A stretch of DNA of 32,000 nucleotides from an uncultured Clostridia bacterium (GCA_937907055.1 CALCTW010000034.1:3009-35008); one strand, 5' to 3'; positions 1-29,620 are shown, counted from the stretch's first letter. Numbers and translations: made by a program. The notes: a model not told the origin generated them from the letters alone.

Positions 1-2
1 AG

Positions 3-518: not shown

Positions 519-3500
519 TTGACGGAATTCAACCATAACAACGGCGGCAGCGATCCCGCCGGTGAGACCCGTCCTTTTGCCCTTCCTGCCGATGACCGGC
601 CGGGGGCTGTTTCCGATACCCAGACCTTCGCGCCCGGAGAAGTCCAGGGCTACACAGATCCCCTCGGAGCCGCCGGATATCCGGAGGATGAACAGCCCCG
701 CAAGGCCTATTTTGACGATCACACCGATCCCTACCCCGAAGCGGCCCCTGCCTGGGAGCCGGAGGCCGATAACGGGAACGGCTATGATATCTCCGATGAT
801 CCCGCGCTGCAGATCGGGGATGTGCCGCCGCCGGAGCGCACGTTCGCCCCGGACGAGGACGAAGAAAAGAATCACAAGCGCAGCATCTTCAAGAAGCGCA
901 AGCGCAAGCCCAGCTTCGTGCTGGCCGTCATCATCAATTCGCTCCGCCTGCTGCTGCTCATCATCCTGCTGGTGGGTCTGAGCGGCGTGGGCGCCGTGAT
1001 CGGCATCGCCAAGGGCTATATGGACAGCGCGCCGGAGCTGGATCTGGCCGCCATCACCGATCAGGCGCAGACCAGTTTCATCTGCGACCGCTACGGCAAT
1101 GTGATCTGCGAATACATGGGCACGGAAAACCGCGTGATGGTGTCCATCACCACCATGCCGCAGCATCTTCAGCATGCCTTCGTGGCGGTTGAGGACGCGC
1201 GTTTCTACAGCCACAACGGTGTGGATGTCAAGCGCATCATCGGCGCTTTTGTGACCAACTTCACCACCGGCTCCAATCAGGGCGGCTCCACGATCACCCA
1301 GCAGCTGATCAAGAACACCCTGCTCTCCAACGAGCAGAGCTATAAGCGCAAGATCCAGGAAGCGTATCTGGCCATGCAGCTGGAGAACCGTTACACCAAG
1401 AATGAGATCCTGGAGAACTACCTGAACACCATCTATCTGGGCGAGAATTATTACGGTGTACAGGTCGCCAGCTACGGCTATTTCGGCAAGAATGACCTGA
1501 GCACGCTCACCCTGCGCGAGTGCGCCATGCTGGCCGGTATGACCCAGAACCCCTACTATTATAATTGCCGCCGTAATTATTACGTGCGCACGGTGACCGA
1601 TCCGAACGAGGATCCGAACACCTACCGCAATATCACGGATGACCGCACGGATTATGTGCTGCGCTGCATGCTTGAAAATGACTTCATCACGCAGGAGGAA
1701 TACAACGCCGCGCTGGACCGCAGCACCGCGCACATCCTGCAAAGCAGTCCGGAGAGCACGGAACTGTATTCCTACCCCCACTATGTGGAATACGCGGTAC
1801 GCGACGCCGTGCGCATCCTGCTGGAAAAGAACGGGCTGGAGAATACCTCCTCCAACCGCGTTGCCATGGAAAATGAGCTGCGTACCGGCGGCTATCACAT
1901 TTTCCTGGCCATCGATACCGAGATCCAGGAGCAGCTGGAAAACACCATCTACAATTATTCCGATTATCCCACCCTGCGTGACCCGGATGACAAGATCTAC
2001 CGCACGCGTAATTCCGACGGCACCTATAACGAGGTGATCCAGCCACAGGTGGCCGCAGTGGTGATGGATTACCGCACCGGCTATGTACTGGCCATGGTGG
2101 GCAGCCGCACACGCCCCACCGCGCGCAAAACGCTCAACCGCTGCACGGATATGAACATGCCGGTCGGCAGCAGCATCAAGCCCATCGCTGTCTACGCGCC
2201 GGCGATCGATATGGGCTGCAGTCCCGCCAGCGTGACCTACAACCTGCCCCTGCCCATCAGCGGATGGAAGGATGACAACGGCCGTGACAGCTGGCCCACC
2301 AACTACGGCGGCAGCAGCTACCGCGGGCCGGAGACCCTGCGGACCGCCCTGAAATACAGCGATAACACCGCGGCCGCGTGGACACTGCTCAATTACGTGA
2401 CCCTTGACCGCTCGGTGGATTACCTGACACGCATGGGCGTGAACAAGAGCCACATCAACGCCACCCCGTTCGGTGTTTCCCTCGGCAGCAGCGGCATCAC
2501 ACCGCTGGAGATGGCGGCCTGCTTCTCCGCGCTGGGCAACGGCGGCGTGTATCTGGAGCCGCTCACCGTGCTGGGCATCTTCAAGGAATCGCCCGGCGGC
2601 AATGTGGAAACGATCGCCGAATATTCCACCTATCAGGACCGCACACAGGTCTTCAAGGCCTCCACGGCCTATATGACCATCGATATGCTCAAGGACGCCG
2701 TGAGCGGCGGCACCGGTACCGGCGCCAAGATCAAAGGCCAGACCGTCGCCGGCAAGACCGGCACCAACAGCGATCAGAAGGGCGTGTTCTTTGCCGGGCT
2801 TACCGGCTGGTACTGCGGCACGGTCTGGATCGGCCATGACAACTACAAATCCCTTTCCAGCAAGACCACCGGCGGTACCGCCGCCGCGAAGCTGTGGAAC
2901 AGCTTTATGACCAAGATCCACAACGTCAAAAAGCTGGATAACAAAGATATTCTCAGCGGCAGCGCTTCGGATTACAATCTGGTCAAGGTGACCACCTGCG
3001 TGGTGAGCGGCCAGCTGGCGACCGATGCCTGCAAGCATGATCAGATGAACTACGGCACGGTGACCGATTACTGGTTGAACGGCACGCAGCCCACCACCTA
3101 CTGCCAGCTGCACAAGAGCGTGACCGTCTGCAGCGATTCCGGCAAGGCAGCCTCCCCGTACTGCCCTGTCACCTCCGAAAAGGGCGTCATCATCCTGCCG
3201 GTCGGGCATCCCCTGCAGCGTTTCGTCAACACCCAGTACAGCGGTGTGCTGACGGACTATCTGGGCGACTGGGCCAACCTGGATCTGGAGCATTATTCCC
3301 TGAACAGTCTGCTCGCCTCCGATACCTGCACCTGGCACAGCGGCTACCAGTCTCAGCCGCAGTATGGCGGCGGCGCCAGCATGAATGTGCTGAACGATGC
3401 CTACAGCCTGCTTTCCATGGGCGAGGCGCAGCTGTCCGTCCTCGGCCCCTACGCCCCCGGCTACAGCGCCCTGTTCAACGCGGTCAGCACGCTCAGCCAG

Positions 3501-3581
3501 CTGCTCAGCGGCAGTCCTACCGATAACGATCTGTACATTGCCATGGCCAACCTGACCCAGGCGATGCACAACGCGCAGTAA
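519..3581 (+). CDS. Class A penicillin-binding protein (bifunctional glycosyltransferase/transpeptidase, PBP1A-like)
   Basis: GT51 motifs EDARFYSHNGVD and GGSTITQQL. Transpeptidase motifs SSIKP (SxxK), YSDN (SxN) and KTGT. One TM helix follows an acidic/Pro-rich N-terminal extension. AGGAGG at 506-511 lies 7 nt before the TTG start. Confidence 0.93.
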   Translation: MTEFNHNNGGSDPAGETRPFALPADDRPGAVSDTQTFAPGEVQGYTDPLGAAGYPEDEQPRKAYFDDHTDPYPEAAPAWEPEADNGNGYDISDDPALQIGDVPPPERTFAPDEDEEKNHKRSIFKKRKRKPSFVLAVIINSLRLLLLIILLVGLSGVGAVIGIAKGYMDSAPELDLAAITDQAQTSFICDRYGNVICEYMGTENRVMVSITTMPQHLQHAFVAVEDARFYSHNGVDVKRIIGAFVTNFTTGSNQGGSTITQQLIKNTLLSNEQSYKRKIQEAYLAMQLENRYTKNEILENYLNTIYLGENYYGVQVASYGYFGKNDLSTLTLRECAMLAGMTQNPYYYNCRRNYYVRTVTDPNEDPNTYRNITDDRTDYVLRCMLENDFITQEEYNAALDRSTAHILQSSPESTELYSYPHYVEYAVRDAVRILLEKNGLENTSSNRVAMENELRTGGYHIFLAIDTEIQEQLENTIYNYSDYPTLRDPDDKIYRTRNSDGTYNEVIQPQVAAVVMDYRTGYVLAMVGSRTRPTARKTLNRCTDMNMPVGSSIKPIAVYAPAIDMGCSPASVTYNLPLPISGWKDDNGRDSWPTNYGGSSYRGPETLRTALKYSDNTAAAWTLLNYVTLDRSVDYLTRMGVNKSHINATPFGVSLGSSGITPLEMAACFSALGNGGVYLEPLTVLGIFKESPGGNVETIAEYSTYQDRTQVFKASTAYMTIDMLKDAVSGGTGTGAKIKGQTVAGKTGTNSDQKGVFFAGLTGWYCGTVWIGHDNYKSLSSKTTGGTAAAKLWNSFMTKIHNVKKLDNKDILSGSASDYNLVKVTTCVVSGQLATDACKHDQMNYGTVTDYWLNGTQPTTYCQLHKSVTVCSDSGKAASPYCPVTSEKGVIILPVGHPLQRFVNTQYSGVLTDYLGDWANLDLEHYSLNSLLASDTCTWHSGYQSQPQYGGGASMNVLNDAYSLLSMGEAQLSVLGPYAPGYSALFNAVSTLSQLLSGSPTDNDLYIAMANLTQAMHNAQ

Positions 3582-3588
3582 CAGACGG

Positions 3589-5580
3589 ATGGAACTGAAG
3601 GATATCAAAGGCCTGGGCGAAAAGCGCCTGCAGGCCCTCGCGGAGAACGGGATCGATACGATCGGCAAGCTGATCCTGACTCTCCCGCACAGCTATAAAG
3701 ACCTGACACAGGATACGCCTGTCAGGGAAGCCGCGCCCGGCGCCGACATCTGCGTGACCGGGTGCGTTTGCCGCGCGCCGAAGCTCAGCCGCTTCAAGGG
3801 GCTTTCCTGTGTGAGCGCGCTTTTTGAAGATGATACCGGCACGATCGGGCTGCAATGGTTCAATCAGCCGTGGATGAAGGACAACCTGCCCGAGGACGGC
3901 GAGATCACCCTGCACGGAAAGGTGACGCGTACAAAAAAGGGAAATCTGGTGCTGAACAGTCCTCAGATCGTCACCGAACGCGCGCTGGTGCCCGTCTACA
4001 CCGCCCTGAAGGCGATCCCGGCGAAGACGCTGCAGCAGGTCATGAAGACCGCACTGGAAAAGGCGGAAGACTGCCTTCCGGAAACGCTGCCGGATTCCGT
4101 ACGGGAAAAGTACGGCCTGTGCGGCCGGCATTTCGCGCTCCGTCAGGCGCACTTCCCCACCGATCACGAATCCCTTTCCGCCGCGCTGCGGCGTTTATCC
4201 TTTGAGGGCCTGCTCTTCTATCAGGCGGCCACCGTGATGCTGCGCGGCGAAAAGCAAAAGGGCGAAGCCCTGCGTTTTGACAACGCGCTGCAGGATTATT
4301 TGGCCTCCCTGCCCTTCCCGCTGACAGGTGCGCAGACGCGCGTGCTGAACGAGATCGCGAAGGATATTTCCGCCCCAATCGCCATGAACCGTCTGGTGCA
4401 GGGCGATGTGGGCTGCGGCAAGACGGCAGTCGCCTTCGGCGCCATGTATATGTGCGCCCGCGCCGGGCGGCAGAGCGTGCTGCTCGCCCCGACGGAAATT
4501 TTAGCCCGTCAGCACTTTGAAAGCGCGAAGGCCGTGCTGGGCAGGCTGGGCATTTCCTGCGGGCTGCTGCTGGGCGGCATGAAGGTAAAGGAACGCCGGG
4601 AAGCCCTGCAGAAGATCCAAAGCGGCGAATGGCAATGCGTGATCGGAACGCATGCCCTGCTCAGCCGGGATGTGGAATACGCCGCCATCGGCCTGATCAT
4701 CACCGATGAACAGCACCGCTTCGGTGTCCGGCAGCGCAATGAGCTGAACCGCAAGACCGCGCTTCGCCCGCACGCGCTGGTGATGAGCGCCACGCCCATC
4801 CCCCGTTCGCTGGCCCTGGTCCTCTGGGGCGATCTGGATATCAGCGTCATTGACGAGATGCCGGCCGGACGCAAGCCCGTCCGCACCATGCTGGTTCCCG
4901 AGAAAAAACGCGAGGATATGTACCGTTTTCTGATCAGGGAAGCCGCGCTGGGGCATCAGGCCTACATCGTCTGTCCGCTTGTTTCGGAAAACGAGCAGAT
5001 GGATGCCGCCGGCGCGCAGGAGTTATACGCCGAGCTTTCTACCGGTCCGCTGCGTGACCTCCGGCTGGGGTTGACCTACGGCGGTCAGAAGCCCGACGAA
5101 AAAGAAAAGACCCTCGCCGCGTTTTCGGCGGGAGAGATCCAGGTGCTGATCGCCACCACCGTGGTCGAGGTGGGTGTGAACGTTCCGGCGGCGACCTGTA
5201 TGGTCATCGAGGACGCCCAGCGCTTCGGCCTATCCCAGCTCCATCAGCTGCGCGGACGCGTGGGACGCGGCGCGGACGAGAGCTGGTGCTTCCTGATGGC
5301 GGAAAAGAACGAACGGCTGGACACCCTGTGCAAAACCGGCGACGGCTTCAAGATCGCCGAAAAGGATCTGGAACTGCGCGGCCCCGGCGATTTTCTGGGC
5401 ACCCGCCAGCACGGCGCGCTGCTGCCCGGCATGAATTTTACCGCCGATGTGCGTCTGATCGAGCAGACCCGGGACTGCCTGCGGGATCTTCAATCCGGCC
5501 CTCCCGAGGATCTGGCCCTCGTGCGCGCGCAAGCCGCCGCGCTCTTCCGGCAGTCGCTTGAAGAGATCGTGCTGAACTGA
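3589..5580 (+). CDS. recG: ATP-dependent DNA helicase RecG
   Basis: Walker A GDVGCGKT, DEQHRFG box, SATPIPRS and QLHQLRGRVGRG helicase motifs. An N-terminal wedge/OB-like region is present and the length is typical (663 aa). Confidence 0.93.
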   Translation: MELKDIKGLGEKRLQALAENGIDTIGKLILTLPHSYKDLTQDTPVREAAPGADICVTGCVCRAPKLSRFKGLSCVSALFEDDTGTIGLQWFNQPWMKDNLPEDGEITLHGKVTRTKKGNLVLNSPQIVTERALVPVYTALKAIPAKTLQQVMKTALEKAEDCLPETLPDSVREKYGLCGRHFALRQAHFPTDHESLSAALRRLSFEGLLFYQAATVMLRGEKQKGEALRFDNALQDYLASLPFPLTGAQTRVLNEIAKDISAPIAMNRLVQGDVGCGKTAVAFGAMYMCARAGRQSVLLAPTEILARQHFESAKAVLGRLGISCGLLLGGMKVKERREALQKIQSGEWQCVIGTHALLSRDVEYAAIGLIITDEQHRFGVRQRNELNRKTALRPHALVMSATPIPRSLALVLWGDLDISVIDEMPAGRKPVRTMLVPEKKREDMYRFLIREAALGHQAYIVCPLVSENEQMDAAGAQELYAELSTGPLRDLRLGLTYGGQKPDEKEKTLAAFSAGEIQVLIATTVVEVGVNVPAATCMVIEDAQRFGLSQLHQLRGRVGRGADESWCFLMAEKNERLDTLCKTGDGFKIAEKDLELRGPGDFLGTRQHGALLPGMNFTADVRLIEQTRDCLRDLQSGPPEDLALVRAQAAALFRQSLEEIVLN

Positions 5581-5663
5581 TATTCCCGCGTTTCATCGGC
5601 GCGGTTAGGCTTTCGTGTATTGCCCTCACAGGCGGCACGGCCCGGAAAGCGGAAAACCGAATA

Positions 5664-5692
5664 TTGCGAATTCAACATTTCTATGATAAACT
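5664..5692 (+). promoter_or_regulatory. Candidate sigma-A promoter for the DegV gene
   Basis: TTGCGA (5664-5669), a 17 nt spacer and TAAACT (5687-5692), with an extended -10 TG at 5684-5685. It lies about 60 nt upstream of the ATG. Confidence 0.5.
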
Positions 5693-5753
5693 GTTTCTGA
5701 CGCGCGGAACCGCGCGTCCACACAGAAATCATAACGATAAGGAGATATAGATC

Positions 5754-6644
5754 ATGTCTGATTACATTCTCAGCTGCTGCTCTACCGCGGATATGAGCAA
5801 AGAATACTTTGAAAGCCGTAACATCCGTTACGCCTGCTTCAACTACGAACTGGACGGCACGACCTACAAGGATGACCTGGGTGTCACCATTCCCCTGCCG
5901 GATTTCTACGCCGCCATGGCGGAAGGCAAGATGACCCGCACCAGCCAGATCAACACCGAAGATTACGAAGCCTACTTTGAAGAGCTGCTGCAGGAGAACA
6001 AGCCCATCCTGCACATTGCCTTCTCCTCCGGTCTTTCCGGCTCTGTCAACAGCGCGATCATCGCGGCGGACAATGTGATGGAACGCCATCCCGGCTCCCG
6101 TGTCGTGGTGATCGACTCCGTGGCCGCTTCCTCCGGCTTCGGTCTGCTGGTGGACAAGGCCGCCGATCTGCGCGACGAAGGCAAGACCCTCGAAGAAAAC
6201 GCCGCCTGGATCGAGGCCCACAAAAAGAACCTGAACCACTGGTTCTTCACCACCACCCTCACCTACTTCATCCGCGGCGGCCGCGTCAGCAAGGTGAGCG
6301 GCACCCTGGGCAACATGCTCAATATCTGCCCCCTGCTCATCGTGAATGACGAAGGCAAGCTGATCAACGTGGAAAAGATCCGCACCAAGAAGAAGGTCAA
6401 GGCCACCATCGTGGACCGTATGATCGAAAACGCGGACAATGGCCTTGATTATGACGGCAAGTGCTTCATCTCCAACAGCAACTGCCTGGAGGACGCGCAG
6501 GATGTGGCCCGTATGATCGAAGAAAAGTTCCCCAAGCTGAACGGCAAAGTGCAGATCTACGACATCGGCACCGTCATCGGCAGCCACACCGGCCCCGGCA
6601 CCGTCGCGGTCTTCTTCTGGGGCAAGGAGCGCACGAACGCCTGA
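5754..6644 (+). CDS. DegV family fatty-acid-binding protein
   Basis: The overall sequence pattern is typical of DegV (for example VIDSVAASSGFGLLV and the GPGTVAVFF end). AAGGAG SD lies before the ATG. Confidence 0.9.
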   Translation: MSDYILSCCSTADMSKEYFESRNIRYACFNYELDGTTYKDDLGVTIPLPDFYAAMAEGKMTRTSQINTEDYEAYFEELLQENKPILHIAFSSGLSGSVNSAIIAADNVMERHPGSRVVVIDSVAASSGFGLLVDKAADLRDEGKTLEENAAWIEAHKKNLNHWFFTTTLTYFIRGGRVSKVSGTLGNMLNICPLLIVNDEGKLINVEKIRTKKKVKATIVDRMIENADNGLDYDGKCFISNSNCLEDAQDVARMIEEKFPKLNGKVQIYDIGTVIGSHTGPGTVAVFFWGKERTNA

Positions 6645-6790
6645 TCGCTCCGAACGGCAAGCCGCGCGGCTCCTGCAAAGAGCACCGCGCGTATTAAAAA
6701 AGCCTCCGGCAGTACAGCCTGAAGGCTGCCCGTCGTGCTCCCCAGTTCAGCAAGCGCTGATTTGCGGAAGTACAGATATTGCTTTCAAAG

Positions 6791-6826
6791 GACTCCGATC
6801 TCAGAAATGGGATCGGAGTCTTTTTT
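6791..6826 (+). terminator. Rho-independent terminator
   Basis: A perfect 10 bp stem GACTCCGATC (6791-6800) / GATCGGAGTC (6811-6820) with a 10 nt loop, followed by T6 (6821-6826). It sits at the point where composition drops to AT-rich. Confidence 0.75.
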
Positions 6827-6962
6827 GCTATGTACGGGTTTTACTATCCTTATGACCTTAATACAGCAAATCTATTGATGCATTTTGTTGCTGATTTGAT
6901 AAGTTGTTGCTTCGCTTGAAAAGGGATTATTTTGTATATGAGCCAAATACCAACTCAAAGGC

Positions 6963-6991
6963 TTGACAGAATCGTCAAAACGAACTATAAT
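6963..6991 (+). promoter_or_regulatory. Perfect-consensus sigma-70/sigma-A promoter
   Basis: TTGACA (6963-6968), exactly 17 nt, then TATAAT (6986-6991). The TTG of the -35 box is what the ORF track uses as the start codon of the 394 aa ORF. Confidence 0.7.
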
Positions 6992-7067
6992 TGAGAGCGT
7001 GAAAACTTACCATGTTGGACTACATGATGCAAGCGATCACTGTACCAAGAAAGAGAGGGCACCACAA

Positions 7068-8147
7068 GTGGAAGGAACAAGCGAAAAAGTGAAGCATCCA
7101 TGCGTGGCTCTTCGGGATGAAATGATTCGCGCCGGCATGAATCAAAGGGAGCTCTCAGTTCGAACCGGAGCCACAGAGAAGCATATCAGCACTGTTCTGA
7201 ACGGTGACCGAGATATCTCGGTGGCATTTGCCAGAAAGCTAGGTTATGTGTTTGAACATGACGCAACCTATTGGCTTGATTTGCAGGCACAGTACGACAG
7301 CTATCAGATGCGTATTCGTGAAGAAAATGAAATATCACAAGACGAGCTTGATATTCTCAAACCCTTGCATGATATTTGTGAGCACTTCATTCAGCGCGGA
7401 TATCTGAAGAATCATTGCGGCGATGCAACAAAGGTCATGCGTCTTCGGTCACTGCTTGGCGTCAGTGACCTGACTGCCATTCCGAGGATTACATATAACG
7501 CAGCGTATCGCGCTCAGATCACAGAGAATGTGAAGGTGGATCCGTATGTGCTGTTTGCATGGCAACGGTTATGCGAAAAAGAAACGGAACACATTATCTC
7601 AGATTCAGATCTGAATGTGGATAAACTTCAGGAATGCATCGGTGAAATCAAGCAACAGATGCATGGCGCCATAACGGAAAGCATTGCTTCGCTGCAGAAT
7701 ATCTTTGCCCGCTGCGGTATAGCATTTCAGGTGGTGAAGAATTTCCGCGGAGCCCCTGTTCAAGGGTTCATAAAAAAAACGGAGGCAGGGAAAGTACTGT
7801 TATGCCTCACGATCCGCGGCGGACGATCGGATGCATTTTGGTTTACCTTGTTCCATGAGATCGGTCATCTCTTGCATGGTGATGTGACCACGAGATTTGT
7901 GGATTTTGACTCCATATCAGGGAAGGCAGAAGATGCTGCCAATCGGTTTGCGAGTGATACGCTGATCGATCCGGAAAAGTACAGACAGTTTTTGCGAAGC
8001 AAGTCTTCGATTCTGTGGCAGGATATTGAAGCATTTGCGAAGCAGGAAGATATCATGCCCTCTATTGTGCTGGGTCGTCTGCAAAAAGACGGTATTCTGG
8101 AGTGGTCTGACTACGCAGGCAATGTAGTTCGCTACCAGTGGGCGTGA
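7068..8147 (+). CDS. Fusion of an XRE/HigA-type HTH domain with an ImmA/IrrE (COG2856, Peptidase_M78-like) zinc metallopeptidase domain
   Basis: The N-terminus HPCVALRDEMIRAGMNQRELSVRTGATEKHISTVLNGDRDISVAFARKLGYVF follows the HigA/VapI HTH pattern. The C-terminus carries the HEXXH motif FHEIGHLLHGD. The start is uncertain: GTG 7068 (GAGGG 8 nt upstream) is preferred, with GTG 7089 as an alternative. Either must lie downstream of the promoter at 6963-6991. Confidence 0.85.
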   Translation: MEGTSEKVKHPCVALRDEMIRAGMNQRELSVRTGATEKHISTVLNGDRDISVAFARKLGYVFEHDATYWLDLQAQYDSYQMRIREENEISQDELDILKPLHDICEHFIQRGYLKNHCGDATKVMRLRSLLGVSDLTAIPRITYNAAYRAQITENVKVDPYVLFAWQRLCEKETEHIISDSDLNVDKLQECIGEIKQQMHGAITESIASLQNIFARCGIAFQVVKNFRGAPVQGFIKKTEAGKVLLCLTIRGGRSDAFWFTLFHEIGHLLHGDVTTRFVDFDSISGKAEDAANRFASDTLIDPEKYRQFLRSKSSILWQDIEAFAKQEDIMPSIVLGRLQKDGILEWSDYAGNVVRYQWA

Positions 8148-8370
8148 ATCGCCGTTGTGATCTGTATTTGGCGATACAGGTCACAGTGGCCTGAATCCAG
8201 AGATGAAGGAGGTGAGAATATTGAGGGCAATAAAAAAACCGGTAGTTGACTGTTGGCGCAGCTGCTACCGGTACCCCTGCGGAATTGGCGTTCCACAAGA
8301 GCAGAAGCGTCAGATGATGACACTTTCCCACAGTCATCATAACACTTTTCTGCTGCGACGTCAATAAACT

Positions 8371-8435
8371 ATGCTTTTGTTCTGTAGATATGAATGCTTT
8401 TGTTCTGTAATATGAACGGATATGAACAAAAGCAT
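8371..8435 (+). promoter_or_regulatory. Repeat cluster (putative operator) with an embedded candidate promoter
   Basis: ATGCTTTTGTTCTGTA occurs twice in direct orientation (8371-8386 and 8394-8409, 23 bp period). Its inverted copy GAACAAAAGCAT lies at 8424-8435. ATATGAA occurs three times (8388, 8410, 8420). A candidate promoter TAGATA (8385-8390)-17-TAATAT (8408-8413) has repeat 2 filling its spacer. Confidence 0.5.
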
Positions 8436-8476
8436 GTTGACTAGAATTGCTCTGAGGAGCAGAAAGTGAGAATAAT

Positions 8477-9151
8477 ATGACGGATATTTTTACTGTCGCG
8501 GATCTACTAGAAATCATTAGGGATTATAAAATGTATCTTCAAGGGAAGGTACATTTTGCTCCGGATGGTTGGCCGATAATGGAGCGAGAATGGTTCCTCG
8601 ATGTATGGCCTGATGAACTTGTTCCATATCCAAATCGGAACAATAAACTGTATCACAACAAGCACAATTCTACTCTATGCTACTATTGCGCTGACAATCG
8701 CATCTATCCAAGATTCAATAACCTGTTTCAAGAAATCGGATCATACAAAGCATTTCAAGGAGTTGTTGGACCGGATATCACAGTTACCAGAGACATGGAT
8801 ATCGAGCTGCAACAATCGATTATGTTGGCAAATCAGTTGTTTATGGCGATTCTTGCAGTAAATGGAATCAAAGTTGTACTTAACACCCGTTGCGGGGGAT
8901 TGGCAACAGTATCGTGCTTCCGATACCTCCCCAAAGGGATTATGTGTGCATCCGGCTTCCTTGGTTGCAGCAATTCCCGTACAACATCAGAAGCGAGCAT
9001 ATATGTCAACAAGGTGTTATCTTTACGGCCGTCTAAATTGCTTGTATACGGAAAGCAAGATGAATTGGTTAACCAACAATTGGATACGCTTGGTATTAAC
9101 TATAGGTATTACGAAGATTTTCATCGTATTTCTTGCAGGAGGTGCGTGTGA
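8477..9151 (+). CDS. DUF4417-like protein (function unknown)
   Basis: The sequence follows the pattern I recall for DUF4417: FQGVVGPDITVTRDMDIELQQSIMLANQLFMAILAVNGIKVVLNTRCGG, then KGIMCASGFLGC, then PSKLLVYG. This rests on recollection, not on a search. Confidence 0.65.
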   Translation: MTDIFTVADLLEIIRDYKMYLQGKVHFAPDGWPIMEREWFLDVWPDELVPYPNRNNKLYHNKHNSTLCYYCADNRIYPRFNNLFQEIGSYKAFQGVVGPDITVTRDMDIELQQSIMLANQLFMAILAVNGIKVVLNTRCGGLATVSCFRYLPKGIMCASGFLGCSNSRTTSEASIYVNKVLSLRPSKLLVYGKQDELVNQQLDTLGINYRYYEDFHRISCRRCV

Positions 9152-9537
9152 TGTCTGACTATAAGCAAGCGTATTCTGATATCTCTAAAGATTACATCGA
9201 GAATGTCGTCCCCAACAATTCACTGGACACGGAGCGCTACAATCGAAGCAAACTTCGAGAAGCGAAGAACAATGATAACTGGTTGAAAAACAAAGTAAAT
9301 CTCAATGAAATTGTGGACCGTTTTGTCCCAACCGTTGAAGGCTTTGTGGAACAGCATCACGAAGGTGGTGTCAAGTATGACTTTGAAGGAGAAAGATATA
9401 TTGTAAAATGTGATAAAGTTGCAGGCTACCTTCGGATCTATGATAAACAAGCAAAAATGTATTGTACATTGGATGGGACTCCTTCAAGAAATGGTGACGA
9501 AACTCATTTCAAGATCAAACGAAGGGAGGAGATGTGA
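9151..9537 (+). CDS. Hypothetical protein (128 aa), no recognised domain
   Basis: The ATG overlaps the upstream stop (TGATG). AGGAGG lies 8 nt upstream. Coding-like composition. The C-terminal segment VAGYLRIYDKQAKMYCTLDGTPSRNGDETHFKIK looks beta-rich. Confidence 0.6.
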   Translation: MSDYKQAYSDISKDYIENVVPNNSLDTERYNRSKLREAKNNDNWLKNKVNLNEIVDRFVPTVEGFVEQHHEGGVKYDFEGERYIVKCDKVAGYLRIYDKQAKMYCTLDGTPSRNGDETHFKIKRREEM

Positions 9538-9541
9538 CCGT

Positions 9542-9886
9542 ATGTGGATTCGGGTAGCGAAACACCAAAGCGCCATCAAAATCGGCCAAGCTGGTAATCG
9601 TTATATTGATGGGCCTCTTATCGAAGAATTCTATTTTGACGAAGCAATGGCAGAAGCACTGGATGCAGATCATTTTCTTCCTGAAATGTGGGAAAAACTT
9701 CAGGCAATGTTTGATTGGGGAGATTGTGATTATTTCGAAGCTGATCGTTGCAAGAAGCTTTACACTTGGGTTTCAGAAAGACTGTGCAAAGACATCTCTC
9801 CTGCGATCAGACCTGTATATGAGGTGATGCAAGAGTATTCTGCATTGGCCGTAAGGCTTAATACCGGGATGTACTTTGATTTTTGA
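9542..9886 (+). CDS. Hypothetical acidic protein (114 aa), no recognised domain
   Basis: The ATG lies 4 nt after the upstream stop. GGGAGGAG lies about 11 nt upstream. The protein is Trp/Asp/Glu-rich. The upstream part of the 158 aa track ORF overlaps the previous gene and is not used. Confidence 0.6.
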   Translation: MWIRVAKHQSAIKIGQAGNRYIDGPLIEEFYFDEAMAEALDADHFLPEMWEKLQAMFDWGDCDYFEADRCKKLYTWVSERLCKDISPAIRPVYEVMQEYSALAVRLNTGMYFDF

Positions 9887-9896
9887 GGACGCATTG

Positions 9897-10316
9897 ATGA
9901 AATCAACTTATCAAATACCGTCGATACATCTTGATTCGCGCCCTCTCCCCACAGTTGTCCCTAAGATAATACAATTGTCTGAAGCTGAACGGTACCGGGA
10001 CTTGTCGAATGATTATGATCTTACAGATTACCCTGATTGTAAAAGGAAGGTATCTGCTCTTGATCTTCTAAGGATAAACGATGAGAAAGCGATTCTGTCT
10101 GCTCTGCTGCCCTTTCCTGGCAATATGACACTGGTAGTAGTACTTGACTACCTTGCTGGTTGCAGACCGGCAGACAGTTTGTTTGTGAGACGCACACTCC
10201 AAGCCATTCAACTTGTTCTGTCCCTCTTTCCGCAAGTTACTATTATGCTTGCTGTTACACCAACCGAACAAGACTTCTTTCGGGATATAATCAATACAGC
10301 ATACAAGGGAGCGTAA
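9897..10316 (+). CDS. Hypothetical protein (139 aa), no recognised domain
   Basis: The ATG lies 10 nt after the upstream stop, with GAGGA 7 nt upstream. The C-terminal half is hydrophobic (LVVVLDYLAGC...LVLSLFPQVTIMLAV). Confidence 0.55.
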   Translation: MKSTYQIPSIHLDSRPLPTVVPKIIQLSEAERYRDLSNDYDLTDYPDCKRKVSALDLLRINDEKAILSALLPFPGNMTLVVVLDYLAGCRPADSLFVRRTLQAIQLVLSLFPQVTIMLAVTPTEQDFFRDIINTAYKGA

Positions 10317-10320
10317 TCTG

Positions 10321-10668
10321 ATGAATCATGAAACCATTGGCCTGAAAGTCACGGAATACGCATCCATGGCTACCTTGTGTGACCATTATCAGAAAATACC
10401 GCAATGCATCCATGAGCGAGATTGTCTCAGCAATCAAGAACAACGAGTATGTTCTATGCTTTGATTATGATGATGACCGCGGTCTGAAAAAATCATCGCC
10501 TGCTACAAGGCACTTCGGAAGGCAAAGATTGGCGCCCAGTTATATGAGATGGATGACGAGCCCACCACGCTCAAGTTCATGGAGAACCTGAACGGTACCT
10601 ATCGGCAGATCTCTGAAGAGTGGATGCACAGATGGAAGCAGAGTCCGAGACCTGATCTTTATAGCTAA
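10321..10668 (+). pseudogene. Frame-disrupted small ORF (about 115 codons if repaired), unknown function
   Basis: An ATG at 10321 has AGGGAG 9 nt upstream. Protein-like translation continues only by switching frame twice, near the TGTGTG run (~10376-10381) and at the A6 run (10487-10492). The repaired C-terminus is ...DDDRGLKK/IIACYKALRKAKIGAQLYEMDDEPTTLKFMENLNGTYRQISEEWMHRWKQSPRPDLYS, with the stop at 10666-10668. Confidence 0.4.
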
Positions 10669-10701
10669 GAGGACCATCGTTTGAACAAGCGATGGTCTGA
10701 A

Positions 10702-10731
10702 GTCTCCGGCACGAAAGCCGGAGACTTTTTT
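10702..10731 (+). terminator. Rho-independent terminator closing the AT-rich islet operon
   Basis: Stem GTCTCCGGC (10702-10710) / GCCGGAGAC (10717-10725), loop ACGAAA, then T6 (10726-10731). A second hairpin precedes it (GACCATCG...CGATGGTC, ~10672-10697). Confidence 0.7.
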
Positions 10732-10744
10732 ATGTATGGATCAC

Positions 10745-12562
10745 TTACGCGTTCAGCAGAGAGCCGGTCGCCTCATCCTCATACTGACGGGTATACAGGC
10801 GATGATAATAGCCGCCCTTCTTCAGCAGCTCGGTATGCGTGCCCTGTTCCACGATCTTACCGTCCTGCACCACGAGGATCAGATCGGCATTCTTGACAGT
10901 AGACAGGCGGTGCGCGATCACAAGGCTGGTACGGCCCTGTATGATGGTATCGATGGCAGCCTGGATCTTCTGTTCGGTCAGGGTATCCACGCTGGCCGTG
11001 GCTTCATCCAGCACCAGAATCCGGGGATCGCACAGGATGGCGCGCGCGAAGCTGATCAATTGCTTTTCGCCGGTGGACAGCACATCGCCGCCCTCGCCCA
11101 CATCGGTATCGATGCCGTTTTCCATCCGCGCCACCACCTCATCCGCGCTGACCAGCTTCAGCGCGCGGGCGATCTGTTCCTCCGTCGCGTTCGGATTGCC
11201 GTACAGCAGGTTTTCACGGATCGTGCCGCTGAACAGATGCGGTGTCTGCAGCACGTAGCCGATGGCGGAATGCAGCCACAGCTGACTGCGCTCCCGGGCA
11301 TCCCGGTCATCGATCAGCACCTGACCCGCGGTGGGCTCAAAGAAGCGGCAGACCAGATTGACCAGTGTACTCTTGCCCGCGCCGGTCTCGCCGACGATGG
11401 CGATATTGCTGCCGAAGGGGATCTTCAGATTAAAATGCTCCAGCACGTATTCATCGCCGTCCGGATACCTGAAGGAGACATCCTTGAATTCGATATCGCC
11501 GCGCAGCGGTTCCCAGTTTTCCTTCTTCGGGTTGAAGGAGTCGCCGTACTGTTCAATGACCGCGGGGGTATCGGTCACATCGCTCTTCGTGCCCAGCAGA
11601 CGGGTCAGACGCTCGATATTGACCTGCGTTGTAATCACATCGCTGATCGCGTCAATGATCCAGCGGACAGGCTCCATCATGCCCTCGGCATAGCTCATGA
11701 ACATGGAGAAGGTGCCCACTTCGCTCTCGGCGATGTATCCGCCCTTCCACAGCACGATGGCCAGCGCCAGACTGCTGGCCAGGTTCATGGTGGCGGCAAA
11801 CAGTCCGCGAAGACGGCTGGCATGGATGCCCATGTGCTTCATCTTCGCCGTATCGGCATTGAAATCGCCGTTCATCTTATCCTCGATCACGAGGGTCTTG
11901 ATGGTCTTGGCGCCGGTAATGCCTTCATTGAAATCGCCCGTGATCCTGCTGTTCTGCTCGCGGATCTGACGGTTCACATGCACCAGCTTTTTCTGGAACA
12001 GGCTGAAAAGGATCACGATCAGCGGCAGAATGGTGACCACCATCAGCGCCAGCTTGGCGTTGACGATGAACATGACCGCCACGACACCCACCAGATAGCT
12101 CAGATGCCACACGCTGTCCATCAGCGTCCAGCTGACCAGCGAGCCGATGCGGGAGGTGTCGCTCATCACACGGCTGTGGATATAGCCCACGCTGTTCTGA
12201 TTAAAATAGCTGAAGGAAAGGGTCTGCAGATGATTGAACGCCGCGTTGCGCAGGTCCCGGTTGAAGGAGACCTCCACCGTCATGGCGCCGGAGCAGCTCA
12301 CATAGTTGCACGCGCCCGCGAACAGGGTGCAGCCGACATACAGCAGAATGAACCACGGCAGGGTGTCCAGGGTATGCTCCCCGATAAAGTGGTTCAGCGC
12401 GTAGCGCTGGAAAACCGGAATCAGGATATCCACACCCGTCGCCAGCAGGCCGCAAAACACCATGATGCTCAGCCGCTTCCGGTACTTTTTCATGAACGGG
12501 ATCAGCCGCGGGATCCCGAAAAACGGCAGAGACACATTTTTTTCTTTCGTTTCTTCACTCAT
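10745..12562 (-). CDS. ABC transporter permease/ATP-binding protein (type I exporter half-transporter, second of pair)
   Basis: An N-terminal six-TM exporter domain. Walker A GETGAGKS, signature LSTGEKQ, Walker B ILVLDEATAS. The start overlaps the upstream stop (TAATG at 12560-12564). Confidence 0.93.
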   Translation of the reverse strand: MSEETKEKNVSLPFFGIPRLIPFMKKYRKRLSIMVFCGLLATGVDILIPVFQRYALNHFIGEHTLDTLPWFILLYVGCTLFAGACNYVSCSGAMTVEVSFNRDLRNAAFNHLQTLSFSYFNQNSVGYIHSRVMSDTSRIGSLVSWTLMDSVWHLSYLVGVVAVMFIVNAKLALMVVTILPLIVILFSLFQKKLVHVNRQIREQNSRITGDFNEGITGAKTIKTLVIEDKMNGDFNADTAKMKHMGIHASRLRGLFAATMNLASSLALAIVLWKGGYIAESEVGTFSMFMSYAEGMMEPVRWIIDAISDVITTQVNIERLTRLLGTKSDVTDTPAVIEQYGDSFNPKKENWEPLRGDIEFKDVSFRYPDGDEYVLEHFNLKIPFGSNIAIVGETGAGKSTLVNLVCRFFEPTAGQVLIDDRDARERSQLWLHSAIGYVLQTPHLFSGTIRENLLYGNPNATEEQIARALKLVSADEVVARMENGIDTDVGEGGDVLSTGEKQLISFARAILCDPRILVLDEATASVDTLTEQKIQAAIDTIIQGRTSLVIAHRLSTVKNADLILVVQDGKIVEQGTHTELLKKGGYYHRLYTRQYEDEATGSLLNA

Positions 12563-14400
12563 TATTCACACGCCTCCTCTCCGGAAAGGCTCTGGATATC
12601 GTAGATCTGTTTATATAGTCCCTCCTGACGCGCCAGTTCCTCCGGCGTGCCCAGCTGGGCGACCCGGCCATGATCCAGCACAAGCACCTGCTCTGCCTTG
12701 GACAGGGTGGTGATGCGGTGGCTGATCAGGATGATGGTCGCGCTGCCGAAACGCTTTTCAAGCGCGGCGCGGATCTTCGCGTCGGTCTCGGTATCGACTG
12801 CGGACAGGGAATCATCAAAGATCATCACCGGGGTCTTCTGCGTCAGCATACGGGCAATGGCCGCGCGCTGCTTCTGACCGCCGGACAGCGTAACGCCGCG
12901 CTCACCCACGAAGGTGTCATAACCCTTGCTGAAGCCGTTGATCGTCTCATCCAGGCAGGCGGCCTTCGCGGCCTCGTCGATATCCGCCTGGATCAGCGCG
13001 TCATTGGTGATCATCAGGTTTTCCTTCAAGGTGCGCGAGAACAGGAACGGCTCCTGCAGAACGATGCCGATGTTCTTCCGCAGATGCTCCATGCGGATCT
13101 CATTGATGTCCCTGCCGCCGATAGTGATCCGGCCGTTCTCCGGCTTCAGGGGATACAGGCGGTCCAGCAGATACATCAGCGTGCTCTTACCGCTGCCCGT
13201 ACCGCCCAGAATGCCCAGCGTGGTCCCGGCCGGGATCCTGAAGGAGATGTCATGCAGCATCTCGGGGCAGTTGTCATACCCGAAGCTCACATGATCGAAT
13301 ACGATATCCCCGGTCATATCGGCATCCGTCACGCCCGGCGCGTCCTTCTCTTCGTCCGCGTCCATGATATAGCCCACACGGTCGATCGCGACACCGGCCT
13401 TGCTCATCTCGCTGATCATGCGGCCCAGCTGACGGACAGGCCACACCAGCATGCCGTTGTAGCTGACGAAGGCGATATACTGGCCGGGTGTCATGTCTCC
13501 GTTCAGCACGAAGATCACACCGAAAACGCTGGTCAGCATCACCTGAACGCCCACCAGAATATCGCTCGTGATCCAGAAGCGCGCCAGGATCATGGCCATT
13601 TTTGTCCACAGGGATGTGTAGTAATCGTTGTGCTTTTCAAAACGGTCACGCTCGTAACGCTCCCGTCCGAAGGCGCGCACCACACGCACACCGGTCAGGT
13701 TCTCCTGCGCCATGGCGCTCAGCTTGCCCTCGTTTTCATCGCACTTTTCAAAAGCCTCTCCCACCTTATTGTGGAACACCAGCGAATAGATGACCATGAT
13801 GGGCATCGGCGCCAGCGCGACCAGCGTCAGAAGCGGATTCATCCCGATCATGAAGACCAGGCTCATGACCAGCAGGATCACGATGCGGATCAGGCCGGTC
13901 ATCTGCTCGGAAATAAAGTTGCGCATGGTATCGATATCGCTGGTGCAGCGCTGGATGATATCGCCCGTGTGATTCTGCATGTGCCACTGGAACGGCAGGC
14001 GGCTGATGTGCGAATAAAGCGTATCGCGCATGTTCTTGACCAGTGTTTCGCTGCCGCGGGCATTGGTCACGCGGAAGCCGTACTGGCAGATCACCTTGAC
14101 CAGCGCCACCAGCACGATGGCGAGCGCCAGGATCCACAGATCCTGCCTGAGCTGCGCCACACCGCCCACCTTCGCGATCAGATCCTGCACAAAGGGGCTC
14201 AGACTGCTGAGCTCCTGCCCGCCGATGACATTATCCACCGCCACGCGGATGATCTGCGGGGTGATCATGTCGCTCAGCGCGCTGAGCGCCGCGCAAAGCA
14301 TGCACAAAAGGAACATGGCCCGCGCGCCCCTCAAAAATGCCCAGATCAGTTTCGCGCGTCCGGGCCGCTTTTCAGACGGCTTTGAAATCGTATTTTCCAT
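12562..14400 (-). CDS. ABC transporter permease/ATP-binding protein (type I exporter half-transporter, first of pair)
   Basis: Walker A GGTGSGKS, signature LSGGQKQR, Walker B VMIFDDSLSAVD. I chose the start at the ATG at 14400 (MENTISK...) because GGGAGGGA precedes it. The longer track ORF to 14463 lacks an SD. Confidence 0.92.
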   Translation of the reverse strand: MENTISKPSEKRPGRAKLIWAFLRGARAMFLLCMLCAALSALSDMITPQIIRVAVDNVIGGQELSSLSPFVQDLIAKVGGVAQLRQDLWILALAIVLVALVKVICQYGFRVTNARGSETLVKNMRDTLYSHISRLPFQWHMQNHTGDIIQRCTSDIDTMRNFISEQMTGLIRIVILLVMSLVFMIGMNPLLTLVALAPMPIMVIYSLVFHNKVGEAFEKCDENEGKLSAMAQENLTGVRVVRAFGRERYERDRFEKHNDYYTSLWTKMAMILARFWITSDILVGVQVMLTSVFGVIFVLNGDMTPGQYIAFVSYNGMLVWPVRQLGRMISEMSKAGVAIDRVGYIMDADEEKDAPGVTDADMTGDIVFDHVSFGYDNCPEMLHDISFRIPAGTTLGILGGTGSGKSTLMYLLDRLYPLKPENGRITIGGRDINEIRMEHLRKNIGIVLQEPFLFSRTLKENLMITNDALIQADIDEAAKAACLDETINGFSKGYDTFVGERGVTLSGGQKQRAAIARMLTQKTPVMIFDDSLSAVDTETDAKIRAALEKRFGSATIILISHRITTLSKAEQVLVLDHGRVAQLGTPEELARQEGLYKQIYDIQSLSGEEACE

Positions 14401-14440
14401 ATTCGGTCCCTCCCTATCACAGAGTCTGTTTCTCTGCCAA

Positions 14441-14476
14441 TAAAAAACGCCTGTTCCGCACATACGGACAGGCGTG
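14441..14476 (-). terminator. Intrinsic terminator inside the 5' leader of the ABC operon (putative attenuator)
   Basis: On the minus-strand RNA: CGCCTGTCCG, loop UAUGUG, CGGAACAGGCG, then U6. The plus-strand stem arms are 14448-14458 and 14465-14474, with the A-run at 14442-14447. It lies about 40 nt upstream of the ABC start codon and 20 nt after the leader ORF stop. Confidence 0.6.
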
Positions 14477-14493
14477 GAATTTCATCAGCCCTT

Positions 14494-14568
14494 TTACAGG
14501 AAGAAGGCACATGTATCCCTTTCCTGTTCCGTATCCTGCATATCATTCAGATGATCCCTGATGTACAT
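14494..14568 (-). CDS. Candidate 24 aa leader peptide (MYIRDHLNDMQDTEQERDTCAFFL)
   Basis: AGGAGAAGGAAC lies immediately upstream of the ATG (14566-14568, minus). The ORF contains CGGAACAGG, identical to the 3' arm of the downstream terminator, which allows an alternative antiterminator pairing. Confidence 0.4.
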   Translation of the reverse strand: MYIRDHLNDMQDTEQERDTCAFFL

Positions 14569-14691
14569 GTTCCTTCTCCTTTCTGTTTCATTCCGGGTGC
14601 CTGCTCAACATATCACAGTTTTCCGGTTTTGTCACGTGTTTTCATGTTGCCTTCCGCCCTGCCGGGACGGGCTGTAAGGCTAACGACCGTT

Positions 14692-14720
14692 ATTATTGCA
14701 TAACGGATGTTCTCTGTCAA
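14692..14720 (-). promoter_or_regulatory. Candidate promoter of the ABC exporter leader transcript
   Basis: Minus strand: TTGACA (plus 14715-14720), a 17 nt spacer ending in the TGC extended -10 element, then AATAAT (plus 14692-14697). It predicts a leader of about 285 nt. Confidence 0.5.
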
Positions 14721-14782
14721 CCCCGGCCGCGCGTTTTTTATTGCATACAATGCGCCCGACAGGCGAAACGGCCCGGATAAAC

Positions 14783-14818
14783 AAAAAACGGATCAGCGCC
14801 CGAAAAGAGCGCTGACCC
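14783..14818 (-). terminator. Rho-independent terminator of the secreted-protein gene
   Basis: Stem TCAGCGC (14793-14799) / GCGCTGA (14809-14815), followed on the minus strand by U6 (plus A-run 14783-14788). It lies about 30 nt after the stop at 14846. Confidence 0.65.
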
Positions 14819-14845
14819 GGAAACGAACGATGATCAGACAGAAGT

Positions 14846-15718: not shown

Positions 15719-15783
15719 GGTCGATTCCTCCTCGTTTTTCCGGGAAAAGGCCGAACTTTTTCAGCCTCTTTTTCCACAGTACA

Positions 15784-15812
15784 ATACTATTCTTTTTCCA
15801 CAGCTTTGTCAA
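15784..15812 (-). promoter_or_regulatory. Candidate promoter of the secreted-protein gene
   Basis: Minus strand: TTGACA (plus 15807-15812), 17 nt, TAGTAT (plus 15784-15789). It is flanked by two copies of a 13 bp direct repeat. Confidence 0.5.
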
Positions 15813-15827
15813 TATTTCCTTATACGC

Positions 15828-15856
15828 AAAAAGCAGCGGAAAAACCGCTGCTTTTT
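15828..15856 (-). terminator. Terminator downstream of rpsU (symmetric, potentially bidirectional)
   Basis: Stem GCAGCGG (15833-15839) / CCGCTGC (15845-15851) with an A5 loop. It is flanked by A5 on one side and T5 on the other. Confidence 0.75.
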
Positions 15857-15865
15857 AAGAAGTCA

Positions 15866-29596: not shown

Positions 29597-29620
29597 ACCG
29601 CAAAATAACAATAAAATTGT

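Follow-up and report, generated by a model that had tools for sequence, protein, structure and literature searches.

Staphylococcal cassette chromosomes (SCC) and pseudo-SCC elements, with or without a recombinase, stand in tandem at the 3' end of rlmH (orfX) and have direct repeats of this gene end between them, and integrons hold strain-variable arrays of small recombinase-less cassettes that are parted by a recurrent recombination site. Here we compare these and other systems with an AT-rich islet that lies between degV and an ATP-binding cassette (ABC) exporter operon in an uncultured Clostridia bacterium (GCA_937907055.1, contig CALCTW010000034.1, positions 3009 to 35008). The whole stretch analyzed, 32,000 nt in length, is called the window; W is our label for the islet cassette, and L-numbers denote comparison contigs or loci. 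We propose that the islet is probably a non-autonomous cassette, bounded by attachment (att) sites and belonging to a family at the 3' end of rpsI in uncultured Clostridia, and that it carries a toxin-based conflict operon.

Cis-mobilizable elements (CIMEs) and tandem accretion at att sites have been described for the islands of Streptococcus thermophilus related to ICESt1 and ICESt3, which are integrative and conjugative elements (ICEs) (PMC5704250). Among integrative and mobilizable elements (IMEs), IMESag-rpsI and other IME_rpsI of streptococci target the rpsI 3' end (PMC5090054, PMC5357655). The tycheposons of Prochlorococcus use a tRNA target, and their units carry integrases (bioRxiv 10.1101/2020.12.28.424599). 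As for the cargo, PD-lambda-2 is a validated defense system of the toxin-antitoxin (TA) type that consists of a HigB-like protein A, an XRE-peptidase B, and a P4-antitoxin-like protein C; in this system, B is toxic, A neutralizes B, and C is needed for defense (PMC9519451).

The same cassette behind rpsI

The exact DUF4417 protein encoded in the islet is present on six other contigs, and W as a whole recurs at 98.6 to 99.9% identity on eight other contigs in at least three other contexts, including the rpsI locus (L022 and L023) and cassette arrays (L038 and L066). In L022 and L023, W is located directly 3' of rplM-rpsI instead of degV. Window positions 6711 to 10697 correspond to positions 2559 to 6524 of L022 with 98.7% identity, and the shared DNA opens with the final 50 nt of the rpsI gene. 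A 52/53-bp direct repeat of the rpsI 3' end flanks W in L022. Its left copy completes rpsI, and its right copy (6666 to 6718, 87% identical) represents the original gene end, which has been displaced and still has the native rpsI terminator behind it. Such a layout is what site-specific integration into the 3' end of a gene classically leaves when the incoming DNA brings a replacement end. Insertions of this kind, with a duplicated gene end, were found in L022, L023, and L066; the window holds an orphan end at a secondary site. There, the att core has no rpsI gene in front of it; an in-frame TAA stands four codons upstream (6695 to 6697), with degV beyond.

Next to the core lies the left arm (Table 1), whose spacer (ending in ACAGATATTGCTTTCAAAG) and terminator are kept in at least nine att copies; the hairpin sequence varies between cassettes, with the pairing maintained. 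Once integrated at rpsI, this terminator would stop rpsI transcription.

The rpsI site is hypervariable among contigs that encode an identical S9 protein. Some of them have the native rpsI end (GCGTTAA and its terminator) and are uninserted. One insert (L041) encodes a 356-amino-acid (aa) tyrosine integrase, a repressor, a primase/DUF3987 protein, a KAP NTPase, and a TIR gene; in another (L039), a cassette-type left arm adjoins a 101-aa C-terminal integrase remnant, and MNT/HepT and type I restriction-modification genes come next; and further inserts bear Fic or additional cargo. The two rpsI-site integrases are just 34% identical across a short aligned region. The rpsI arrays are preceded by rplM and a gene encoding an EAL domain. 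A scan of JGI metagenomes with a 23-nt left-arm motif returned three chance matches in unrelated eukaryote-like DNA, and IMG/VR scans with the left-arm and right-arm motifs returned nothing.

Cassettes with unrelated cargo share both arms

From left to right, a complete unit of this family consists of a 52-bp copy of the rpsI end, the spacer and terminator, a promoter and the cargo, the cargo's own terminator, an 88-bp right arm, and the next copy of the rpsI end; units are found either alone behind rpsI or as members of an array. The right arm lies directly left of AGTACGGTCTGAAGG and runs CCATCACNCCCGTATCCCTCCTCCTTTCT..CTGTATAATCATTCATCCGCAT..GGTGCATTTTCCCCACAG, then AGTACGGTCTGAAGG; it is conserved with at least 91% identity in four copies on three unrelated cargos. 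Together, the 88-bp arm, the rpsI 3' end, and the terminator form a composite inter-cassette site of about 200 to 250 bp. In L038, an att-like remnant is followed by a cassette with RelB, NUDIX-YjbR, AAA_14-DUF4143, and TOTE AEP-helicase-PLD genes, then by a 93-bp arm with the 52-bp core, and then by W. L066 (GCA_024404245.1) begins with the end of W; an arm, core, and terminator then lead into a single-gene AAA_14-DUF4143 cassette, and a second arm, core, and terminator lead into an HTH-AAA_28 cassette (91% identical to that of L034), beyond which core genes resume, so that this contig has two full composite sites 1.74 kb apart. The cassettes that share both arms are 1.6 to 5.6 kb long, have unrelated cargo, and lack an integrase. 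Candidate defense genes recognized by PADLOC in the sister cassettes include PDC-S01 (AAA_14-DUF4143; 1e-62 and 1e-135), PDC-S07, and a PrimPol/TOTE protein, and the integrase-bearing rpsI element of L041 matches PDC-S49 and PDC-S66.

Junction variants in a few sequences suggest that the crossover likely falls within CTGAAGGC. A second boundary type, at CAGTTC..AAGCG, occurs in L034, L038, L040, and L044 and hints at a second recombinase specificity; a second right-arm type common to L034 and L038 was looked for and not found. The second boundary (CAGTTC..) is also used in L040 (10341 to 10564) and L044 (5906 to 6128) by a cargo-free tandem duplicate of the last 18 rpsI nucleotides and terminator, located 3' of a native rpsI with the copies about 170 bp apart, which resembles the footprint of a past integration and excision. 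We rejected a reading of the composite site as an integron attC site; it is not an imperfect palindrome, and apart from the terminator hairpin its predicted fold shows just minor local stems, with the arms unpaired.

Insertion polymorphism between degV and the ABC exporter genes

A scan for DegV with one genome per species gave a best identity of 61%, hence no species-level relative or empty site, and exact look-up of the window DegV and ABC proteins gave no match. A protein search, however, yielded a DegV cluster at 99% identity, the contigs of which reveal variants of the locus. L028 (GCA_045628485.1) is 98% identical to the window over recG-degV; here, 43 bp lie between the degV stop and AAAGTCTCCGGCACGAAAGCCGGAGAC, whose final 26 nt are identical to the hairpin at window positions 10700 to 10725. 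As the alignment reads, this junction is the empty site; the empty degV junction expected under the insertion that had been proposed from the window sequence is found in a near-identical relative. In L029 and L030, the window sequence is kept to about position 6800 and gives way to genes for RelB, ParE, and an extracytoplasmic function (ECF) sigma factor. L034 and L035 (86-kb contig) match window positions 1 to 6799 at 98% identity and then carry an HTH-AAA_28 gene and a gene encoding a 214-aa protein, followed by a second copy of window positions 6743 to 6873. Overall, the left junction was found on seven independent contigs. The segment is therefore not universal at the locus, which is empty in L028 and holds other cargo in L029/L030 and L034/L035, and, as the locus varies between near-identical strains, the islet is not ancestral there.

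Other differences were seen on the same contigs. L028 has two additional genes (220 and 265 aa, with no clear Pfam family) between recG and degV at positions 2931 to 4817, where the window has only 68 bp (5586 to 5653), representing a second indel polymorphism one gene away from the islet. At positions 13575 to 13746, L034 diverges after the first 130 bp of the W left arm into the GC-rich hairpin GGAGGGGGTGGCTAACCCCCGTCCTCC, followed by the T-loop-like stretch GGTTCGATTAC and the contig end; ARAGORN and Rfam searches were negative there.

Composition and borders of the islet

The GC content of the islet (6827 to 10735) is 0.440 versus 0.578 in the remaining window, and 402 windows of 3.9 kb placed off the islet have a mean of 0.577 (standard deviation, 0.019; minimum, 0.549), which puts the islet at a z value of −7.2. 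The GC content at third codon positions (GC3) is 0.39 to 0.49 in the islet open reading frames (ORFs) and 0.79 to 0.82 in recG, degV, and the two ABC genes, and the tetranucleotide distance to the remaining window peaks at the islet (0.49 versus 0.15 to 0.29 elsewhere). GC, GC3, and tetranucleotide plots thus all single out the islet, in agreement with the shift in composition and codon usage noted by eye in an earlier sequence-only reading of the window. The same reading had placed all islet genes on the plus strand behind a consensus promoter and had seen no integrase, transposase, tRNA, or long inverted repeats. The credible islet genes are indeed on the plus strand without exception, the promoter matches the consensus at every position (Table 1), and the absences were confirmed by domain libraries, RNA scans, and a repeat search: no integrase, transposase, relaxase, or type IV secretion system domains were found in the W ORFs with Pfam, PHROGs, NCBIfam, and PADLOC, no tRNA, tmRNA, or Rfam families were found in the window or in the cassette arrays with ARAGORN/Rfam-type scans, and the islet has no long terminal inverted repeat.

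The borders differ from those first proposed. A two-change-point maximum-likelihood segmentation of GC content placed the breaks at 6758 and 10747, and the true left edge is at about 6712, about 115 bp left of the proposed 6827. The GC-rich stretch from 6710 to 6826, made up of the orphan rpsI 3' end, the spacer, and the terminator, is element DNA and not the degV terminator. Because the orphan rpsI 3' end, an att remnant, had been missed, the left border was set too far right and the terminator before it was assigned to degV. Terminator hairpins are located at 6787 to 6826 and 10699 to 10731. A strong closing terminator, as proposed, is present at the latter position, but it is the native degV/ABC terminator, and the cassette's own terminator is cut at 10697.

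Lesser GC dips, to 0.47 to 0.51, occur elsewhere in the window at 14251 to 15000, 15751 to 16500, and 29501 to 30000. The second of these covers rpsU and its upstream region, where the listed 474-aa ORF is an over-extended frame ending in S21.

Table 1. Positions of the features of the islet and its junctions in the window
Feature	Position	Strand	Description
Native 5' half-stem of the degV/ABC terminator	6695..6711	+	Stranded by the insertion; aligns with the empty allele L028
Left 12-bp imperfect direct repeat	6700..6711	+	AAGCCTCCGGCA
Orphan rpsI 3' end, att core	6710..6760	+	..QYSLKAARRAPQFSKR*; 88-96% match to real rpsI ends (L022, L039-L046, L066)
Left (P') arm	6761..6826	+	Spacer TTTGCGGAAGTACAGATATTGCTTTCAAAG, then rho-independent terminator (hairpin 6787-6824 and T run)
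P1 promoter	6963..6991	+	TTGACA, 17 nt, TATAAT; 12/12 match to sigma-70 consensus; conserved in L022 and L038
ORF1, 359 aa	7068..8147	+	XRE/HigA-like helix-turn-helix (HTH) fused to M78 (ImmA/IrrE) Zn-peptidase with HEIGH; putative regulator, sensor, or antitoxin
DUF4417 operon leader	8205..8435	+	Strong ribosome-binding site (RBS), small ORF, three ATGCTTTTGTTC copies; putative operator/attenuator
DUF4417 protein, 224 aa	8477..9151	+	First operon gene; predicted alpha/beta-barrel-like enzyme
p128, 128 aa	9151..9537	+	Start overlaps DUF4417 stop (TGATG)
p114, 114 aa	9542..9886	+	Acidic, isoelectric point 4.6; candidate immunity protein/antitoxin for p128
p139, 139 aa	9897..10316	+	Fourth and most variable operon protein; 26% identity to L050 homologue
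Decaying terminal gene(s)	10322..10668	+	81-aa ORF intact in L022, frameshifted in the window
Cassette's own terminator, truncated	10669..10697	+	3' stem cut after CGATGGTC; no T run
Native degV/ABC terminator	10699..10731	+	26 nt identical after degV in L028
Right 12-bp repeat copy	10700..10711	+	AAGTCTCCGGCA

Junctions and decay of the window copy

Positions 6695 to 6710 are 94% complementary to positions 10717 to 10732, which lie 4006 nt away. From this pairing, the native bidirectional degV/ABC terminator is split and its 5' half-stem is duplicated. The 12-bp direct repeat alone is not significant in 4 kb; its weight lies in its position at both homology break-points and in its identity with the terminator half. 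The stretch just 3' of degV (6647 to 6699) aligns poorly with the empty allele. Homology to other W copies (L022 and L066) extends from about 6711 to 10697 and ends inside the 3' stem of the W terminator, so that the window copy is without the 88-bp right arm and the right attachment site (attR), both of which are present in the L022 copy. With the right arm and attR lost, the window copy is probably immobile, and its right junction may be a later deletion scar. The window junctions are unlikely products of one plain conservative crossover at a pseudo-att site, a reading that we rejected, as it would need duplication of the 12-bp target stretch plus part of the core.

The last gene of the window copy is frameshifted at an A6 run (10491 to 10496; A7 in L022) and has a second indel near its end. 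In L066 (about positions 520 to 545), a different frameshift is found at the same place of this gene. The frameshifts in the last gene (window positions 10413 to 10668) could represent decay, slippage, or homopolymer sequencing error.

The sequence-only reading had offered two descriptions of the islet, a horizontally acquired cargo cassette and a decayed element remnant, and each describes part of what was found. The empty and other-cargo alleles, as well as the near-identical copies of W behind rpsI and in arrays, bear out the former, and the loss of the right arm and attR and the frameshift in the last gene relative to L022 bear out the latter.

A four-gene operon with a homologue of polymorphic-toxin domains

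Most of the islet is taken up by ORF1 and a four-gene operon, the genes of which either overlap at their stops and starts or are 4 to 10 nt apart. The DUF4417-128-114-139 block is conserved in many Firmicutes; in every other lineage examined (L050 to L065), it has the same order and gene sizes, and in these hosts, with 32 to 60% GC, its AT content invariably exceeds that of the flanking DNA. Upstream of it stands a gene for a 124-aa protein, for Fic, for a divergent HhH-GPD glycosylase, or, in the window, for the XRE-M78 protein. We take the block as the functional unit and ORF1 as a swappable regulator. No mobility genes were seen beside the block in these loci.

In L050 (5101 to 9845, compared with window positions 8477 to 12562), which is from a related species with an ABC pair 82% and 70% identical in amino acid sequence to that of the window, a homologous DUF4417-128-114-137 operon directly follows the orthologous ABC operon but is inverted with respect to it. 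It has a gene encoding a 124-aa protein upstream, no rpsI-like att, and MazE/PIN downstream.

The best-conserved protein of the operon is p128 (63 to 87% identity, about 100 clusters), for which there was no Pfam, PDB-sequence, or significant Foldseek match. An exhaustive profile search of 1.84 billion representatives gave 154 relatives, and the distant ones include longer proteins with the domain at the extreme C terminus. We scanned ten of these. Four (P0489, P0493, P0506, and P0518, one of them 3398 aa long) have an RHS core (TIGR03696) above the cut-off just upstream of the domain; P0513 has an N-terminal PAAR domain; and P0517 has a Phage_Mu_F domain. The RHS, PAAR, and MuF matches have library-wide profile E values of 5e-7 to 3e-4. 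The alignment of p128 shows K75, D88, Y93, R95, D98, and H119 to be invariant. On these profile matches, p128 is a free-standing member of an unannotated family of polymorphic-toxin C-terminal domains; in p128 itself, neither a domain for secretion or trafficking nor a hydrophobic segment was seen. A p128-like tip was found in none of the 102 IMG/VR MuF-toxin loci fetched. The gene for p114 is directly 3' of that for p128 in every fetched locus reaching that far, and the protein is 52% identical to its L050 homologue; by position and charge, we infer that p114 is the natural candidate neutralizer of p128.

The first protein of the operon matches Pfam family PF14386 (DUF4417) with an E value of 1.4e-13 (51.2 bits versus a gathering cut-off of 28.9) and has 19 invariant residues across 47 homologues. 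Its AlphaFold2 model (pLDDT, 94) is alpha/beta-barrel-like, and comparison with PDB by sequence and by Foldseek returned only insignificant TIM-barrel matches (E values of at least 0.017). As neither DUF4417 nor p128 has a significant fold match, we name no fold-based activity for them, and the DUF4417 protein can be described as TIM-barrel-like at most. The protein matches a few unnamed viral proteins, and tblastn against phages gave weak matches only.

ORF1 starts at the GTG at 7068, as the TTG at 6963 falls inside the promoter. It matches the PADLOC model PD-Lambda-2_B over nearly its full length (E value, 1.2e-27), and its peptidase half matches RmrA models with E values of 2e-8 to 6e-3. 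Matches to Pfam Peptidase_M78 and HTH_3 are marginal; that to HigA TIGR02607 (9e-11) is below the cut-off, and that to PHROG 2439 is at 4e-22. Only weak matches were obtained with tblastn against phages. A full-length homologue of ORF1 (XRE-M78, 30% identity) is encoded at positions 3968 to 5023 of the human-gut phage NatCom_34192 (PV036448.1; L068), where it is a moron between the large terminase and portal genes, with two tiny ORFs before it.

ORF1 and DUF4417 are separated by a gap of 329 bp, which includes the leader. The small ORF of the leader encodes 48 aa (TTG at 8221, extending to 8367), and the ATGCTTTTGTTC copies are at 8371, 8394, and, inverted, 8424. A comparable layout was observed in four lineages (window, 8205 to 8435; L050, 7770 to 7990; L056, 7110 to 7260; L060, 7135 to 7270), each with a strong RBS, a mini-ORF with Lys-Lys (AAAAAA), and a perfect 10- to 13-bp inverted repeat of lineage-specific sequence. 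Such a conserved architecture with unconserved sequence could be that of a leader/attenuator or of a co-evolving operator.

Proposed mechanism and alternative explanations

We propose that a tyrosine recombinase of an autonomous element with the same site would move the cassettes in trans and that the cassettes would behave as CIMEs do when they accumulate through tandem accretion. In the window, the copy would then have landed at a secondary site, the terminator stem-loop between the convergent degV and ABC genes. Within the cargo, p128 would be an intracellular toxin related to polymorphic-toxin warheads, with p114 as its neutralizer and DUF4417 and p139 as accessory or sensing components, and ORF1 would repress the operon via the ATGCTTTTGTTC sites, releasing it on a trigger. 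The outcome would be a TA-like conflict system acting through abortive infection or addiction. A further-reaching version, in which the cassettes form an undescribed integron-like system of Clostridia, shuffled singly in trans into arrays at rpsI and at secondary sites so as to spread conflict and defense genes, and the operon is a new multi-component toxin-based defense system around a new toxin domain that RHS, PAAR, and MuF warheads also bear, seems to us rather doubtful.

Several observations count against the proposed mechanism. Neither an integrase with matching arms nor a circular or excised form was found for the presumed mobilization in trans. At the degV locus, the L028 contig stops 26 nt into the terminator, leaving its continuity to the ABC gene unseen, and the window junction has a 12-bp target duplication, which is not expected from a tyrosine recombinase with a conservative crossover; some other route may therefore have led to the initial insertion at degV. 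The link between p128 and toxins stands at profile E values of 1e-4 to 1e-7, and the structure search gave nothing significant (best Foldseek E value, 0.23). The operon is not consistently accompanied by ORF1. There is no PADLOC model for the operon, W proteins besides ORF1 have no PADLOC match, and the operon is absent from the phage and plasmid collections searched (no p128 match by tblastn).

It is also conceivable, if unlikely, that W is what decay has left of a single larger autonomous element that once had its own integrase, be it an IME, ICE, prophage, or satellite, and that the sites in the arrays are scars of successive integrations and deletions. The rpsI site does also harbor elements with an integrase and an integrase remnant, control modules of prophages and ICEs typically contain XRE-M78 regulators (the ORF1 homologue being a moron in phage NatCom_34192), DUF4417 occurs in phages, and the published model for tandem elements is one of decay followed by accretion (PMC5704250). 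However, the 88-bp right arm (at least 91% identity) and the left-arm type are common to three cargos that are unrelated to one another and of which one is a single gene, an outcome that independent decay should not give, and the 99% identity of W in four contexts indicates that it moved in its present integrase-less form. An ancestral origin, with AT richness kept for functional reasons, or a metagenome-assembly chimera is largely refuted and highly improbable. The homologous operon of L050 does adjoin the orthologous ABC pair, and the right junction is known from this window only; yet the operon in L050 faces the other way, follows a different gene, and lacks an att, strains 97 to 98% identical to the window have an empty allele and two other-cargo alleles, and, in addition to the seven independent contigs with the left junction, the two parts of the split terminator, one at either edge, are complementary.

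As for the cargo, we consider it improbable that the operon is something other than an intracellular TA or defense system, with DUF4417 as a nucleic-acid modifier served by small partners (in modification/restriction or anti-defense) or with p128 as an exported weapon against other bacteria. A modifier would be in line with phage ParB-fold proteins fused to DNA methyltransferases or to DUF4417 (bioRxiv 10.1101/2025.10.10.680097; PHROG 940), with a weak barrel likeness to AP endonuclease 2 and queuine/DNA transglycosylases, and with the AT-rich divergent HhH-GPD glycosylase that neighbors the block in one lineage. These fold matches are not significant, though, with E values of at least 0.017, and the toxin-domain homology is the sole functional link with statistical support. 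Export, in turn, is at odds with the absence of a secretion or trafficking domain and of a hydrophobic segment from p128. We therefore retain the interpretation of W as a non-autonomous cassette of the rpsI family with a toxin-based conflict operon as the probable one.

Comparison with known systems

Of the known kinds, a CIME in an island formed by tandem accretion comes nearest to W, here at a target already familiar from streptococcal IMEs, and SCC islands, tycheposon islands, and integrons are analogues. W resembles CIMEs in having no integration or transfer genes, in having both a left attachment site (attL) and attR in its L022 copy, in its tandem stacking at a conserved gene 3' end, and in its expected dependence on a resident or incoming integrase. 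Known CIMEs, however, are described as deletion derivatives of specific ICEs or IMEs, whereas here cassettes with unrelated cargo share two arms, and the window copy falls outside the CIME definition because attR has been lost, leaving the left att (6710 to 6826) only. With the IME_rpsI of streptococci, W shares the target at the rpsI 3' end and the replacement gene end, and TA-type cargo is frequent; the streptococcal elements have genes for a tyrosine integrase, for a MobV relaxase with an origin of transfer (oriT), and for Rep, whereas W has none of these and is hosted by metagenome-assembled genomes (MAGs) of Clostridia. Tycheposons are similar in their tyrosine-recombinase integration at gene 3' ends, in the partial gene copies between integrations, and in the degenerate remnants that form variable islands, but conserved integrase-less cassettes are not the unit described for them.

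SCC elements depend on Ccr serine recombinases and repeats of about 15 to 20 bp, whereas the site here is about 200 to 250 bp long and the candidate recombinases are tyrosine recombinases. Unlike integrons, the arrays have no adjacent intI, attI, or Pc and no attC-like fold, and the cassettes have their own promoters and terminators. Lacking an attC fold and intI and not being promoterless, the cassette family lies outside the integron definition.

With regard to cargo, ORF1 corresponds to protein B of PD-lambda-2 (HTH and HExxH peptidase), but A and C are absent from W. In RosmerTA, RmrA (XRE plus M78 peptidase) is paired with an adjacent RmrT toxin; ORF1 matches the RmrA models more weakly than PD-Lambda-2_B, and W has no gene upstream of ORF1 that could be compared with RmrT, for which no model exists. 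Residues of about 25 to 125 of p128 align with the extreme C-terminal domain of RHS, PAAR (type VI secretion), and MuF (PMC5576092) toxins, and the gene for a small acidic protein stands next to it, in the place where immunity genes are found; p128 differs in being free-standing, with a helical N-terminal hairpin in place of the delivery domain, and in being inside a four-gene operon.

Integration at the rpsI end, known from streptococcal IMEs, extends to uncultured Clostridia, where it underlies arrays of tiny integrase-less cassettes that have their arms in common and bear candidate defense genes. An AT-rich islet free of mobility genes, usually a dead end, can here be tied to a concrete mechanism and site, and the 88-bp arm and 52-bp core offer a testable substrate for a recombinase hunt. 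The widespread four-gene operon gains its first functional handle through the membership of p128 in an unannotated toxin-domain family found on RHS, PAAR, and MuF toxins. Two features go beyond the known kinds of systems, namely, the very small cassettes that bear unrelated cargo between the same two arms and the uncharacterized four-gene operon.

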